Source of the DNA: an uncultured Candidatus Saccharibacteria bacterium
Lineage (GTDB): Bacteria > Patescibacteriota > Minisyncoccia > Phycocordibacterales > SBAW01
DNA length: 64,000 nt
Direction: 5' to 3'
Assembly: GCA_964566795.1 (NCBI GenBank)
Contig: CAZMIU010000001.1
Span: 399,797 to 463,796 of the forward strand
Under the pieces are notes generated by a model. That model made no database searches. It was not told the origin of the DNA and saw nothing but the letters and a program-made list of their open reading frames with translations. Positions 18,994 to 22,793 of this stretch are shown here, in pieces. The translations under genes were made by a program, and so were the position numbers. Position 1 is the stretch's first letter; each line of letters opens with the position of its first letter.

Positions 18994-19575
18994 TCACACT
19001 TCCAGATAATCGATATTCACCTGCACGTTGCCGGTGCCGGAAATGACGCAGTACACGACCTCGTCCACGCCGCCCTCTACATAGTTGGGGTGGTTTTTTG
19101 TGCCGTACAGCCCTCCCAGTCGCGGAGAGACGTACTTTTCATAATCCGTGCCGCCCGACGTAAAACGGAACGAGACGCTAGTCAGGTTAGCGTCCAGCGA
19201 AAACCGTGTATTGTACACGCGCACCTTCTTGCCGCTCGCGGGCGTGTGCACGGTGCCCGAGGCGCTCAGGCTCGTTGTCTTTTTGAGGACGGCTGCACCC
19301 TCTTTTACCGACGGGTTAACGCGGGTGTTGGACGAATCTTTAACACCCACCACGCCCGTGCCGGGCGTGCTACCCATCACGAGTGCCGAAGCGCGCTTGG
19401 GGAGCGCGCTTGCAGCAACAGCGCCGACCGCTATGACCGCAAGGCTCTTGAGGAACAGGCGCTTATGCTGGTCGCCGGGCGCAGCATGAGCCGCGCCGGG
19501 TTTTAGCGCGCGCGGCAAGGGCTCCAGCACCTCGTACTCAGGCTCTGGAGGGCGTCTGTAGGGAAGAATACCCAC
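18994..19575 (-). CDS. Secreted beta-rich hypothetical protein with a Tat-like signal (..QHKRLFLKSLAVIAVGAVAASALPKRASA)
   Basis: GTG start at 19575 with the SD AAAGGGTGGG 8 nt upstream. The KRLFLK + h-region + AxA arrangement resembles the twin-arginine consensus SRRxFLK with KR in place of RR. Confidence 0.5.
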   Translation of the reverse strand: MGILPYRRPPEPEYEVLEPLPRALKPGAAHAAPGDQHKRLFLKSLAVIAVGAVAASALPKRASALVMGSTPGTGVVGVKDSSNTRVNPSVKEGAAVLKKTTSLSASGTVHTPASGKKVRVYNTRFSLDANLTSVSFRFTSGGTDYEKYVSPRLGGLYGTKNHPNYVEGGVDEVVYCVISGTGNVQVNIDYLEV

Positions 19576-19620
19576 CCTTTCAGTATATAAGACGTATGAA
19601 GGCCCAATGAGAGCAGCTTT

Positions 19621-20154
19621 TTACTCTGGGGATTTCCTCTCCTTTCTGCTCCCCGCATAATAAAACCTCAGTGGCAACTCTTTGGATTTGGAGATCCCTA
19701 TGCGCGGCGACACGCGTACCTCGCGCGTGTCACTTCCCTCGGCCACAAACAGCCCGCTCTCTTTATTTGTCATATCTACCCCATCGAGTGCTTTATTGAT
19801 ATGAAATGTTCTGCCTACAAGGCCCGGGCCGCGCACCGGCAGGGCGCCGCGGATAAGCACTGAGCTCGGTGTGCCCGCCGCCTCTGTCACCACATCGAGC
19901 AAAACGTATTGCCGCATGGCGTGCACATAGGCGTGGCCCGCCTCTTTATATAGGCTCTGGTTGCGCAGACTCTTGCCCTTATGACCGTGGGCGGCCTTAT
20001 CTCCCACGGCCAGGTAGGCCTCTGTCTCGACAATTGTCCCGGCCATCTCTTTGCCGCCCACCCTTCTTACAAGCAGCTTGCCCAACAACTCGCGCGCCAC
20101 TGTGGCCGGCTCGCGGTTAAAAAAGCTCCTCGGCAGCGGCTTATACATCCGCAC
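19621..20154 (-). CDS. mpg: DNA-3-methyladenine glycosylase (Mpg/AAG family)
   Basis: 177 aa with the motifs ETEAY, AHGHKG..RN and YVHAMRQY. Confidence 0.8.
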   Translation of the reverse strand: MRMYKPLPRSFFNREPATVARELLGKLLVRRVGGKEMAGTIVETEAYLAVGDKAAHGHKGKSLRNQSLYKEAGHAYVHAMRQYVLLDVVTEAAGTPSSVLIRGALPVRGPGLVGRTFHINKALDGVDMTNKESGLFVAEGSDTREVRVSPRIGISKSKELPLRFYYAGSRKERKSPE

Positions 20155-20216
20155 AGTTTAGCAAAACGGTACTAAGTACCCATATTTTTCAATTTTTGTG
20201 GTGTTATTTTGGGCCC

Positions 20217-20615
20217 TTAGCGCCTGTTGAGAGATGTGATAGTCAGCTGCAAGGCGGTGGCAAAGGAGACCCAGGCCAGGTATGGCAGGTTTATGAGCGC
20301 GACCCAGGGTGCGATGGGCCAGATGGCCACAAGCGCCCACACGAGCGTGGCCCACACAAGCACGATGTCTATTGCGGCGAGTGTAAAGTTGCGCAGGCGA
20401 AACTGGATGGGCGTAAATAGGAGGTTAAAGATAAGGTTCAGCGCAAATGGTAAAGCAACCAAGGTGGGCACCATACCTTGGTACCAGGCAACGCCAACAT
20501 GCCCAAACGAAATGGCGATGAGTATGTAGAGCACAGTCCACACCGGGCCAAAAGCCCAAGCAGGCGGCGCCCATGATGGCTTTTTGTAGTCTTTGTATTG
20601 AGCTGGGGTGTTCAT
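20217..20615 (-). CDS. tspO: TspO/MBR family tryptophan-rich sensory protein
   Basis: PSWAPPAWAFGPVWTVLYILIAIS signature and 5 TM segments. The start is chosen at MNTPAQYKDYKK. Confidence 0.75.
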   Translation of the reverse strand: MNTPAQYKDYKKPSWAPPAWAFGPVWTVLYILIAISFGHVGVAWYQGMVPTLVALPFALNLIFNLLFTPIQFRLRNFTLAAIDIVLVWATLVWALVAIWPIAPWVALINLPYLAWVSFATALQLTITSLNRR

Positions 20616-20795
20616 ACAACAATTATACAAAATTGAGGGATGGGTTCGGTCACAAATATTTTTCTGCTGAAAATTTTCGCGACCCCGGCTTTCGAATCGG
20701 GATTCGGCCAAGAACATTTTTAGCTGTCGTCACAGCAAAAAATTTCTCGGCCCTGGAACTGCGACCTTGCCCACTGGCAAGGTGCCCGCAGTTCC

Positions 20796-20822
20796 GTTCG
20801 AATCCCTCCCTCTTCCTGCAAA
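20796..20822 (+). repeat. Inverted partial copy of the tRNA-Ser 3' end (T-loop plus acceptor strand)
   Basis: GTTCGAATCCCTCCCTCTTCC on the plus strand, 44 nt from the 3' end of the real tRNA. It has no matching 5' half. Confidence 0.6.
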
Positions 20823-20865
20823 AAATATAATCCCGCACAGACATGCTGTGCGGTCATTATTTTTG

Positions 20866-20956
20866 CGGAGAGGGAGGGATTCGAACCCTCGATACGGATA
20901 TTACCCCGTATGGGGGATTAGCAATCCCCTGCTTTCAGCCGCTCAGCCACCTCTCC
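20866..20956 (-). tRNA. tRNA-Ser (anticodon GCU) with a long variable arm; CCA not encoded
   Basis: Minus-strand sequence GGAGAGGTGGCTGAGCGGCTGAAAGCAGGGGATTGCTAATCCCC..(long variable arm)..GAGGGTTCGAATCCCTCCCTCTCCG. The anticodon loop is TTGCTAA, and the T-arm and 7-bp acceptor stem fold. Confidence 0.8.
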
Positions 20957-20981
20957 AATATACTTCGAATTGTCGCCAGGA

Positions 20982-21061
20982 GACGGTGGCTGAGCGGCTG
21001 CCACGTCGCTTTGCTCCGATGGGGTACAAAGCAGTTTGTACCCCATCCACTCAGCCACCTC
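20982..21061. repeat. Two further copies (one inverted, one direct) of the 18-19-nt tRNA-Ser 5' segment flanking a 10-bp-stem hairpin
   Basis: ggagacggtggctgagcgg (20982-21000, inverted) ... ggggtacaaagcagtttgtacccc ... ccactcagccacctctcc (21043-21061, direct). There is no T-loop, so this is not a functional tRNA. Confidence 0.6.
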
Positions 21062-21170
21062 TCCTTTACTCATACAACTTACACCAAAACAGCACCAATA
21101 AAAAGACCGGCTTTACATGGGCTCAATACGCGGTACAGTGACGGCAGAGCAATGCACAAAGGAGCTAGCC

Positions 21171-21596
21171 ATGCGCCGGCACCATCCAAACAACGTTTTG
21201 AAGGTCAATACGCCTGTCATCGAGCTCCTGTGCAAGAACCCCGCACCTGAGGATCTGATAGACGCCGTAACGACATCGATAATCATCAATTCGACCAGGT
21301 CGGACCTTATGCAGGCGGCCACGGCGGCAGGCGACCTGCTAAGCGCGGTGCGCACAAATGTCTGCGCACCCGGGAGGGTCATCTTCCTCGTACACTTCAA
21401 TATCGAGAGCGACTATCCGTCCTGCACGGTAGCACTCGCCAACGGCGATATTACCGCCAAACTGTACTGCCGGGTCAATACCTATACCGATACGGTAGAG
21501 GTGTACCCTGCCCCCGCGGATACAGCAGGGCCGGCACTCATCGTCTCGCTAAAAAATCTGCGGTACGAGCGCGATAGTACCGCTCGGTTTAACTGA
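21171..21596 (+). CDS. Hypothetical protein (141 aa)
   Basis: Start MRRHHPNN with the SD AAAGGAG 7 nt upstream; followed by a terminator hairpin. Confidence 0.5.
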   Translation: MRRHHPNNVLKVNTPVIELLCKNPAPEDLIDAVTTSIIINSTRSDLMQAATAAGDLLSAVRTNVCAPGRVIFLVHFNIESDYPSCTVALANGDITAKLYCRVNTYTDTVEVYPAPADTAGPALIVSLKNLRYERDSTARFN

Positions 21597-21597
21597 A

Positions 21598-21630
21598 CAA
21601 CGCGGCCCATCCGGGCCGCGTTTTCTCTTG
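21598..21630 (+). terminator. Rho-independent terminator
   Basis: cgcggccc-atcc-gggccgcg followed by ttttctctt. Confidence 0.6.
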
Positions 21631-21659
21631 TAAGATCACAAGCTCGCGGTACACGCCCG

Positions 21660-22793
21660 TTATAACAAATCGATATGTAAGGGCGCTTCAACTTCTGTTG
21701 GGTCCTGCTTAAGTATGGGGGTTATGATGTTTTGCTCAATGCGGGTCTGTGCCTTAAGCAATACATAGAGCTTTGTGGCGCGTGCCAGAGCCTCGGTGTA
21801 GTCGCTCCTCGCTTCATCAAAGTGCCCCTCAGCAAGCGTTGTCGAGCCAAGCTCCATCTGGTCTCGTATAGCAACAAGCTCGCCCGACACCTGCGTTATC
21901 ACGGCCGGGCTCAGGTCATCTTTAATGCCATCAAACAGCTCGCGCACGTCTGCAAGTGTCTCTTCTGCGCGGGCCTGAGCGCGTAATGCTGTCTGCTCGT
22001 CGCCGCGTGGCATCTGTGCGACCATGTCGTTTTCCAACGATACAGTGCCGCTGGCCTCGGTGCCTGTTGAGGTGTCGCTTGCAACCATAGACATGCTCAT
22101 AGTCTGATTTACAGTGGGCGCCGTCTTGGCTACTCGCATGGCGATAGGCGCCGTGGCCGCGCGGGCCGAGGTATTGGTGCGTGCCAAGACCTTAGCGGCA
22201 ATAACGCCAGTACCCTCCTGGTTCTCCTTGGCACCGCCCACCGTAAGCGTTGCAAGTATCTCGCCGTGGGCCAGTAAAGACGAGTCCAATTTGGCACGAA
22301 GCTCTGTGGCGACTTCCGGATCCTCGGTCTCTAGCACCTCCACCTGCTTGTCAGCGTCCTGTGCATGGCTCTCAAAGCTTGCCGCGAGCGCCTCGCCCAC
22401 TGCGGGGTTTAGTTTGCCCTGCGCAGCAAGCGTCTCGGCCTCCTCCACGCGCCTCTGGGCGAGCTTGGCCGACACCTCGGCACGGGCTACAGGCGTGGTT
22501 GCGAGCGCCACCTCTAGCGCCTCGTTAACAGACACCTTAACCGGATACAAAAGGTCCCCCGGCAGAGTGCTCTGTGCCGCAGCTGCGGTACCGGAGCTAA
22601 CAAGTACAACAAGTACAAGTGACAACGGAACAAGAGCCCTAGTACTAAAGAAATGAAATGAGTAACTAAAATACGAGCTCGGTTGCGACGCAAGCGGCGA
22701 GGCAACCCCAAATATGCTTGCCTTCATGGCAGCCTTCTCGTCCGCAGTCATGCGGATCTTTAGTGATTCAGTTTTTAAATTATTGAGTTCCAT
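21660..22793 (-). CDS. Anti-sigma-factor-like membrane protein with a DUF5667 domain
   Basis: One TM segment (ALVPLSLVLVVLVSSG) followed by LPGDLLYPVKVSVNEALE, the characteristic DUF5667 start. Its start overlaps the upstream ECF sigma stop by 14 nt. Confidence 0.55.
   Translation of the reverse strand: MELNNLKTESLKIRMTADEKAAMKASIFGVASPLASQPSSYFSYSFHFFSTRALVPLSLVLVVLVSSGTAAAAQSTLPGDLLYPVKVSVNEALEVALATTPVARAEVSAKLAQRRVEEAETLAAQGKLNPAVGEALAASFESHAQDADKQVEVLETEDPEVATELRAKLDSSLLAHGEILATLTVGGAKENQEGTGVIAAKVLARTNTSARAATAPIAMRVAKTAPTVNQTMSMSMVASDTSTGTEASGTVSLENDMVAQMPRGDEQTALRAQARAEETLADVRELFDGIKDDLSPAVITQVSGELVAIRDQMELGSTTLAEGHFDEARSDYTEALARATKLYVLLKAQTRIEQNIITPILKQDPTEVEAPLHIDLL

Follow-up and report, generated by a model that had tools for sequence, protein, structure and literature searches.

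What has placed partial copies of a tRNA gene, in both orientations, on both of its flanks? The question is raised by a tRNA-Ser(GCU) gene on contig CAZMIU010000001.1 of an uncultured Candidatus Saccharibacteria bacterium (assembly GCA_964566795.1), within a stretch of 64,000 nucleotides (positions 399,797 to 463,796 of the contig) that we call the window. An earlier inspection of the letters alone (hereafter the sequence-only reading) had taken the region for the scar of repeated site-specific integration and excision at the tRNA gene, i.e., a set of att-site remnants, or alternatively for a structured processing or regulatory region. Comparison with related loci, designated below by L numbers, shows that this gene is a site-specific hot spot for tyrosine-integrase islands in the lineage, with complete elements in relatives, junctions common to several genomes, small hairpin-bearing modules that are present at some loci and absent from others, and hairpins that are conserved. 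We judge it slightly more probable than its opposite that the locus as a whole is such a hot spot, with a 3' flank of accreted material devoid of an integrase and a separate module inserted on the 5' side.

The intact gene lies on the minus strand at 20865–20956 (ARAGORN; Rfam RF00005, 58.7 bits at 20866–20956 against a threshold of 29), within a few bases of where it had been placed from the letters. It is a type II tRNA-Ser with a long variable arm and without an encoded CCA, and its sequence is the same in L005, L007, L085, L087, L089–L091, L093, L094, L096, L097, L104, L107, and L112. The stretch between the T-loop and the 3' end is repeated in inverted orientation (sense reading GCAGGAAGAGGGAGGGATTCGAAC; found by inverted-repeat and mismatch searches) at 20796–20822 on the plus strand, as had been reported. 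This inverted copy starts exactly at the T-loop, and its portion 20796–20817 differs from the T-loop/acceptor 22-mer at three positions, with 18 nt exact; by chance, 0.00 such matches would be expected in 64 kb. Inverted pieces homologous to it are present in L005, L006, L007, L008, L021, L095, L110, and L112, and each of them starts TTCGAA. On the other side of the gene we recovered both additional copies of the tRNA 5' end described before: an inverted copy of positions 1–21 (20979–21000, plus strand; 16/16 exact plus a 1-nt insertion), seen also in L001, L096, and L112, and a direct copy of positions 1–18(21) (21044–21064, minus strand; 2 mismatches in 21, chance expectation 0.00). The hairpin that they flank has a stem of 13 bp, not the 10 bp given for it.

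The sequence-only reading had missed several smaller pieces. One is a degenerate direct copy of the T-loop-to-acceptor segment (CGAACCCATCCCTC; 20635–20648, minus strand). Two T-loop pieces stand back to back at 20691–20706, between the units of the 3' flank that we call beta and alpha, one direct (CGAATCCC, 20699–20706) and one inverted (GATTCGAA, 20691–20698), and a T-loop heptamer (20964–20970, plus strand) lies on the 5' side of the gene. The window contains four TTCGAAT heptamers, all inside the 280 nt of 20691–20970, compared with about 4.5 expected across the whole 64 kb. The region had also been called hairpin dense, and indeed it folds far beyond shuffled sequence (z = -11.6 for the minus strand and -7.7 for the plus strand).

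tRNA and tmRNA genes are textbook landing sites of integrase islands, and the classical attL and attR repeats that result are direct and derived from the tRNA 3' end. Relatives display this process at the tRNA-Ser gene. A metagenome scan with a 36-mer of the tRNA returned 13 loci, in five of which (L085, L087, L089, L093, and L094) a gene of the Phage_integrase family lies directly 3' of the tRNA (Pfam E values of 7e-33 and 3e-34 in L085 and L087). Together with L110 and L112, seven relatives carry an integrase beside the gene, and the tRNA is identical to that of the window in six of these. The integrases at tRNA-Ser loci (tblastn matches of 72–81% identity) belong to a family with 1636 homologues at E <= 1e-40, several of them named Paceibacterota or Minisyncoccia. 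Two of the elements are complete. In L110, the tRNA, the integrase, and an HTH_17 gene belong to a 9.6-kb element closed by a 24-nt direct repeat (GGGTTCGAATCCCTCCCTCTCCGC) that spans the T-arm to the tRNA 3' end; in L112, a 10.4-kb element with a primase-polymerase sits beside the identical tRNA, bounded by the same 24 nt. In both, the old trailer has been displaced to the attR side, as classical integration predicts. The L112 locus corresponds to an L005-like locus plus the 10.4-kb element, an occupied site to set beside empty ones such as that of L091, and reads in order as tRNA, 10.4-kb element, attR, a small module, and a further direct copy.

The agreement with prophages and islands at tRNA attB sites is close in these relatives. 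Mycobacteriophage Ms6 integrates at a tRNA-Ala gene, with a T-loop sublocation of the tRNA attB site (PMC1762012). As in such systems, crossing over takes place within the T-arm, the tRNA regains its 3' end from the incoming element, a direct repeat (24 nt for L110 and L112) spans the T-arm to the 3' end, and the integrase gene adjoins attL and has an excisionase-like HTH_17 gene as its neighbor. Sublocation classes of tRNA attB sites were reportedly distinguished by Williams in 2002. The window itself departs from the scheme. Its far-end repeat is the degenerate copy, compared with perfect repeats of 19 nt in L005 and L007 and of 24 nt in L110 and L112, so that only decayed direct copies are left; its inverted copies and 5'-end copies are foreign to the scheme altogether. 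An integrase, which the sequence-only reading had suggested looking for, is lacking: across the 64 kb, the family integrase had no tblastn match, and none of the frames contained an HxLRH motif. An integrase gene adjoins the tRNA only in the seven relatives named above, and none was found in the small islands of L005, L007, and L097 either.

Could the arrangement be an artefact of assembly, i.e., a chimera or a collapsed repeat at the tRNA gene? Several relatives do have contig breaks at the tRNA ends or up to about 20 nt away from them, which indicates that the site is hard to assemble; L085, L087, and L089 begin 14–20 nt upstream of the gene, and L104, L105, L107, and L108 stop at its 3' end. 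However, the 5' arrangement of the window recurs in L001 and, as a variant, in L096 and L112, and the 3' arrangement recurs in L002. L001 and L002 are Logan contigs from other samples that differ by 1–4 substitutions, so that independent samples and assemblers reproduce both flanks. We therefore assign this explanation, which had been named as one that could overturn the att-site interpretation, a negligible probability. The breaks suggest strong strain-level heterogeneity on both sides of the gene.

On the sense strand, the 3' flank reads as tRNA, trailer and terminator, GCAGGAAGAGGGAGGGATTCGAAC, unit beta ending in CTAAAAATGTTCTTGGC, then CGAATCCC, GATTCGAA, unit alpha, CGAACCCATCCCTC, and the promoter region of a TspO gene. 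The terminator is a bidirectional 8-bp hairpin with A/T tracts on both sides (20833–20853; terminator scan of both strands), which by its pattern, a GC-rich hairpin followed by a T-tract, would qualify as an intrinsic terminator; it forms the center of the 3' palindrome and lies inside two inverted repeats. Unit beta (20707–20795, minus strand) contains a long hairpin (20755–20795) and an alpha-like hairpin that the alpha covariance model matches weakly (20700–20759, 21.9 bits, E 0.07). It ends at the T-loop fragment, and the junction of CTAAAAATGTTCTTGGC with CGAATCCC is found also in L112; in L002, the unit differs by one substitution, which keeps a G.U pair on the sense strand. Unit alpha (20642–20691, minus strand; covariance model R1, 70.1 bits, E 1.6e-12) reads AGCC GGGGTCGCG, hairpin, TGTGAC; its conserved 16-bp hairpin runs from GGGGTCGCG through the loop to TGTGAC and abuts a tRNA fragment that starts in the T-loop. 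The model finds alpha once in the 64 kb, plus one weak paralogue.

The same parts recur in relatives in different combinations. A stretch of L005 is homologous to alpha (87.5% identity over 56 nt); there alpha occurs alone, and the 19 nt at which it ends copy the tRNA 3' end perfectly (CGAATCCCTCCCTCTCCGC); the degenerate copy of the window aligns with them behind the same TGTGAC junction. This junction, TGTGAC followed by CGAA, is common to the tandem arrays of relatives. Direct copies that start in the T-loop follow the TATGTGTGAC junction in L005, L007, L097, and the window; such 3' fragments form tandem arrays in L005, L007, and L112, and in the first two of these, further copies are spaced by 0.7–1.3 kb of orphan cargo without an integrase. 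L112 carries both units with the same junctions, including an identical junction of CGAATCCC with GATTCGAA between alpha and beta, but in reversed order (alpha, then beta), just beyond the attR of its integrase element. In L021, a genuine trailer and a terminator, which a convergent gene shares, come after a direct copy, as they would after a displaced original 3' end, and in L091 the identical tRNA is followed by a plain terminator only, representing the empty 3' site. We read the degenerate copy of the window, about 20 nt upstream of the TspO start codon, as an attR-like remnant, the last decayed fragment of a tRNA 3' end.

Cis-mobilizable elements (CIMEs) are flanked by att sites, lack recombination genes, and accrete in tandem with integrative elements (PMC5704250; ICEberg 2.0, PMC6323972). 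L112 shows this pattern: att-type repeats around a module without recombination genes, in tandem with an autonomous, integrase-bearing element at one site. The units described here differ from CIMEs in their size (about 50–210 bp), in being gene-less and dominated by hairpins, and in carrying an inverted copy of the target; their mobilization is our supposition. The best-supported account of the 3' flank (20635–20864), judging from the comparison of sequences, is nevertheless that it consists of accreted, integrase-less element material in a CIME-like pattern. The att-site interpretation thus holds in part: the hot spot, the integrases and complete elements of relatives, the direct copies starting in the T-loop, and the degenerate copy of the window speak for it, whereas the fragments on which it had been based are inverted or derived from the 5' end, unlike classical direct 3' repeats, and are parts of conserved hairpin modules.

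The 5' side of the gene differs from its relatives by an insertion. Comparison with relatives identified a conserved promoter-like motif, TTTTGGTGTAAGTTG (21075–21089, minus strand), that lies 9–12 nt upstream of the tRNA in L007, L091, L093, L097, L104, L105, L107, and L108, and which we regard as the candidate promoter of the tRNA gene. In relatives, the form TTTTGGTGTAA(A/G)TTG stands at 9–12 nt from the tRNA itself, but in the window it stands at this distance from the distal copy of the tRNA 5' end; the window therefore carries an insertion of 108 bp (20957–21064), whose boundaries are marked by direct repetition of 18 nt of the tRNA 5' end. This 5' module is composed of a spacer (TGGCGACAATTCGAAGTATATT; 20957–20978, minus strand), nearly invariant in the window, L001, L096, and L112, which contains the T-loop heptamer mentioned above; the inverted 5' copy; an interior (21001–21047, seen as an inverted repeat) of a 17-nt linker and the perfect 13-bp hairpin (21018–21047), which occurs once in the window; and the direct copy. 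It is present at 4 of the 26 junctions that are visible (window, L001, L096, and L112). The 22 junctions without it include L085, L087, and L089, which have the exact leader of the window, and the nearest relatives, L104, L105, and L108. The window-type and L096-type modules are about 87% identical, and their adjacent leaders differ. Among L096, L112, L097, and L005, the state of the 5' flank is independent of that of the 3' flank.

How would a tRNA gene tolerate 108 bp between itself and its promoter? We suggest that the 5' module is an insertion in its own right, tolerated in the form of a long leader, as which it is probably transcribed. In this leader, base pairing between the upstream direct copy and the antisense copy would precede transcription of the tRNA. 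With the antisense copy neutralized, the tRNA could fold, and RNase P could release it.

The hairpins of the modules evolve as paired structures. In the 5' hairpin, three of the 13 pairs show compensatory changes relative to L096 and L112, with 100% of cells paired, although this comparison covers only two lineages. In alpha, 7 of the 16 pairs show compensatory double changes among six sequences. Two alpha positions are G.U (in 6/6 and 5/6 sequences), a pairing available on the tRNA-sense strand only; likewise, each of the four one-sided changes in the 5' module's outer helix yields G.U on the sense strand. Counted as events across the module hairpins, all five one-sided changes (5/5) yield G.U pairs on the tRNA-sense strand only. 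On these grounds, the alpha hairpin and the 5' hairpin qualify as conserved structured elements, of what would be a new family. This raises the explanation that the modules are structured RNAs of benefit to the host, or cis-acting leader and trailer structures that control the processing, termination, or stability of the transcripts of genes with a T-arm, with the tRNA-matched copies existing for pairing with the tRNA ends. Consistent with it, apart from the compensatory pairs and the strand-specific G.U positions, are the conservation of the 5' module at about 87% across lineages with differing neighboring leaders and the minimum-free-energy fold of the full transcript, in which the antisense copies sequester both tRNA ends. 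Yet strains with an identical tRNA and leader lack the modules, which are therefore dispensable. Moreover, the terminator T-tract comes before the inverted 3' copy, and in L005 and L112 the split inverted copy encloses a terminator-like hairpin; the units occur in either order; and no Rfam family matches. Rfam 15, searched over 19500–22500 at E <= 10, returned the tRNA as its only true match, the others being sub-threshold miRNA- or plastid-type matches caused by the palindromes; neither a T-box nor a tRNA-like element was recognized in the flanks. Overall, we consider a host-beneficial RNA quite unlikely. The sequence-only reading had stated that an identical arrangement with covarying structure in relatives would overturn its att-site interpretation in favor of a functional RNA, and relatives bear this out in part. 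That close relatives lack the modules speaks against an essential role in processing.

Related modules accompany two other kinds of genes. The alpha model has further matches of 32–41 bits elsewhere, two of which lie about 120 nt downstream of the tmRNA genes of L007 and L011; alpha is present, too, downstream of the tRNA-Ile(TAT) genes of L094 and L018. The modules linked to tmRNA genes lie downstream of them at L007 2685–2857, L011 1396–1573, and L010 about 1850–2089, and have a split inverted copy; those after tRNA-Ile(TAT) lie at L094 3799–3950, L018 3720–3772, and L006 1794–1849, the last being degenerate (17 bits, E 0.84). We could read the full architecture in the copies of L094 (tRNA-Ile), L007, and L011 (both tmRNA). 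It runs from the 3' end of the gene through a terminator palindrome, an inverted acceptor piece, a hairpin, an inverted T-arm piece, and a conserved body with alpha to a direct copy. The inverted and direct copies match whichever gene is adjacent, GGCGGAATTGAA and TCAATCGCCCATCTCCAC for the tmRNA of L007 and GCGGCAGGGATCGAA and CGATCCCTGCCGC for the tRNA-Ile of L094, the tRNA-Ile-derived copies being those of L094, and every inverted copy begins at the T-loop. The window has its own tRNA-Ile(TAT/UAU) at 27294–27366 (plus strand), beside RecG, which is kept in nearly all of the relatives checked (L005–L015, L018, L021, and L094); the UAU anticodon is uncommon in bacteria, where AUA is usually read by a lysidine-modified CAU tRNA. 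This tRNA-Ile gene of the window has no flanking copies and is therefore an empty site.

Such gene-matched palindromes might also have grown in place. Replication that switches template at hairpins such as the terminator and the T-arm would turn neighboring sequence first into mirrored palindromes and later into direct copies, without the participation of a mobile element. Several observations fit: the palindromes are centered on the terminator loop, and the trailer too is mirrored in L088 and L094; shorter terminator palindromes, with only the last 5–9 nt of tRNA-Ile, exist in L005, L006, and L007; and templated correction can change both arms of a perfect palindrome. It leaves unexplained, however, the non-tRNA bodies (alpha, beta, and the 5' interior) conserved across genomes and genes, the shared junction motifs, and the same 108-bp module in two leader lineages. 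As the sole origin of the copies, it appears improbable to us. Hairpin-templated palindrome growth may contribute to the inverted copies; the shared bodies are beyond its reach.

Other origins were considered and rejected. Priming from the mature tRNA, with a primer-binding-site-like complement of its 3' end and CCA, does not fit inverted copies that mirror the trailer of the gene and not CCA. Integration in reverse orientation at the palindromic TTCGAA predicts T-loops joined head to head and a disrupted tRNA, unlike the arrangement next to the terminator. Miniature inverted-repeat transposable elements (MITEs), which derive from DDE transposons, resemble the modules in being small, gene-less, bounded by inverted repeats, rich in hairpins, and variable among strains, as do small palindromic repeats. 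In contrast to MITEs, which occur in numerous near-identical copies in a genome and have constant terminal inverted repeats, the terminal repeats here copy the adjacent gene and differ by site, and each unit is present in a single copy in 64 kb (alpha once, plus its weak paralogue, and the 5' hairpin once). We identified neither a DDE-type transposase nor a short, fixed target duplication at the modules.

We return to the reading that we favor, that of an integration hot spot with accreted modules. Tyrosine-integrase islands of the lineage recombine in the tRNA T-arm; under this reading, the small modules would be non-autonomous relatives or remnants of these islands, moved or trimmed by integrases acting in trans; and the inverted copies would have arisen as element-borne or hairpin-templated palindromes. 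Classical integration explains only the direct 3' copies, and several points weigh against this reading. The window has no integrase, and the mobility of the small modules is our conjecture. Neither inverted copies nor copies of the 5' end are predicted by classical tRNA integration. The interior of the 5' module has no significant similarity to the 3' modules (nothing better than E of about 1.5). The structural constraint on the hairpins, with G.U pairs on one strand, fits a functional RNA or a single-stranded form better than inert debris. Copies matched to the gene on a shared body at tRNA-Ser, tRNA-Ile, and tmRNA are poorly explained by three separate lineages of remnants. The equilibrium fold of the whole transcript would trap both tRNA ends, contrary to the leader folding proposed above.

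The 5' and 3' modules have an architecture in common, namely gene end, spacer, inverted copy, hairpin, and direct copy, and in both kinds the inverted copy extends into the tRNA by 2–3 nt more than the direct copy does. With their conserved structure and with repeats matched to three kinds of genes that have a T-arm, the modules may represent either a family of small elements with specific targets or a structured RNA linked to tRNAs. Pursuing the former, they might be undescribed, gene-less mini-elements of Paceibacteria, of about 110–210 nt, that home to the ends of genes with a T-arm (tRNA-Ser, tRNA-Ile, and tmRNA). Each would carry an inverted and a direct copy of its own target around conserved hairpins; as an excised circle or single strand, it would take the form of a dumbbell, with the duplex target site restored in the stem, and would then recombine like a folded attC or the attP of CTX phage, with the target-matched stem serving as a kind of guide. 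The 5' module would be an element of the same type aimed at the other end of the acceptor stem. A literature search found no description of these modules. We think this proposal of targeted mini-elements unlikely to be correct.

Integron attC sites and the forked-hairpin attP of CTX phage are recombination sites in the form of folded single strands. The modules resemble them in that structure is kept while sequence varies, in that only one strand folds correctly as judged from G.T/G.U pairs, and in that two inverted core copies could rebuild a duplex site by folding. They differ in lacking the attC and dif consensus motifs; for the modules, a dependence on IntI or Xer and a single-stranded intermediate would both be conjecture. 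The distal repeats of Escherichia coli tyrT offer another parallel, being 178-bp units each with the last 19 bp of the tRNA; both systems have direct partial copies of the tRNA 3' end downstream of the gene. Those of tyrT, unlike ours, are local tandem duplications, without inverted copies, without a shared body elsewhere, and without a link to integrases.

The surroundings of the locus are ordinary chromosomal genes (Pfam: methylpurine glycosylase, TspO, ECF sigma factor with a DUF5667 partner, malic enzyme, RecG, and dihydroorotate dehydrogenase). By its malic enzyme, 81–83% identical to those of Patescibacteria metagenome-assembled genomes (MAGs) labelled Adlerbacteria, Kaiserbacteria, or Paceibacteria, the window belongs to a Paceibacteria-like chromosome of the Patescibacteria, a group of the candidate phyla radiation, and the order malic enzyme, ECF sigma factor, DUF5667, tRNA-Ser is kept in Paceibacteria-like MAGs. 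The DUF5667 partner has a 100% identical counterpart encoded on an NCBI contig of 590 kb. Next to the att array, the TspO/MBR-family protein (20217–20615, minus strand; 132 aa; PF03073, E 1.8e-30) matches profile positions 21–143 of 145 and lacks the first transmembrane helix of the profile; three Logan contigs yielded this 132-aa product as well. It may have been truncated through rearrangements at the array. Its in-frame upstream extension (frame 20217–20717, minus strand) is not membrane-like. An extended -10-like sequence, TGTATAAT, ends 7 nt ahead of the ATG, which suggests a leaderless mRNA.

On the other side, beyond the 5' module, lies an orphan open reading frame (ORF; 21117–21596, plus strand) whose transcription points away from the tRNA. 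No Pfam family matches it, in line with the earlier remark that the adjacent gene has no known function, and the genome-contig search gave no match; among 5.8 billion proteins it has one homologue, 95% identical and from the same lineage. It lies between the DUF5667 terminator and the tRNA promoter, where L096 and L107 hold different extra genes, and this spot is thus a second variable site. Because the nearest relatives (L104, L105, and L108) lack the ORF and the 5' module does not include it, we do not count it as part of the feature. Farther away, the ORF at 18994–19575 (minus strand) has a weak, sub-threshold Pfam match to the spike tip of contractile injection systems (E 0.005) and adjoins an 803-aa protein without a Pfam family.

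The islands of relatives differ in what they carry. They include a reverse transcriptase adjoining an Mrr-like nuclease (L085 3592–6175), a Dcm methylase with HATPase_c_3, Z1, and DUF4420 (L109 639–6694), an NrS1-1-like primase-polymerase with HTH_17 (L112 7385–10020), and trypsin-like proteases with an HNH protein (L110 3141–7561); from these domains, much of the cargo at tRNA-Ser looks like defense genes. The orientation of tRNA-Ser relative to the malic-enzyme block is flipped between L008, L011, L012, L021, and L006, on the one hand, and L005 and L007, on the other, and L011 has an inverted 18-nt fragment of the tRNA 3' end 1.1 kb upstream of tRNA-Ser, both of which suggest inversions at the locus. 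Viral contigs, scanned for the tRNA 36-mer and for two junctions (that of the 5' side and TGTGAC), gave no match or unrelated phage coding sequence.

The locus shows tRNA integration at work in Patescibacteria, whose mobile elements are little studied, with an associated integrase family that is very large in the group. The less ordinary part is that hairpin bodies are conserved across genera and three kinds of host genes, while the repeats flanking them copy the adjoining gene, and that one module occupies the 5' side of a tRNA, a position at which classical integration never deposits copies. If the modules are mobile, they would represent a compact, target-matched recombination substrate for abundant cognate integrases; if they are RNA elements, organisms with minimal genomes would possess a new class of structured RNAs linked to tRNAs.

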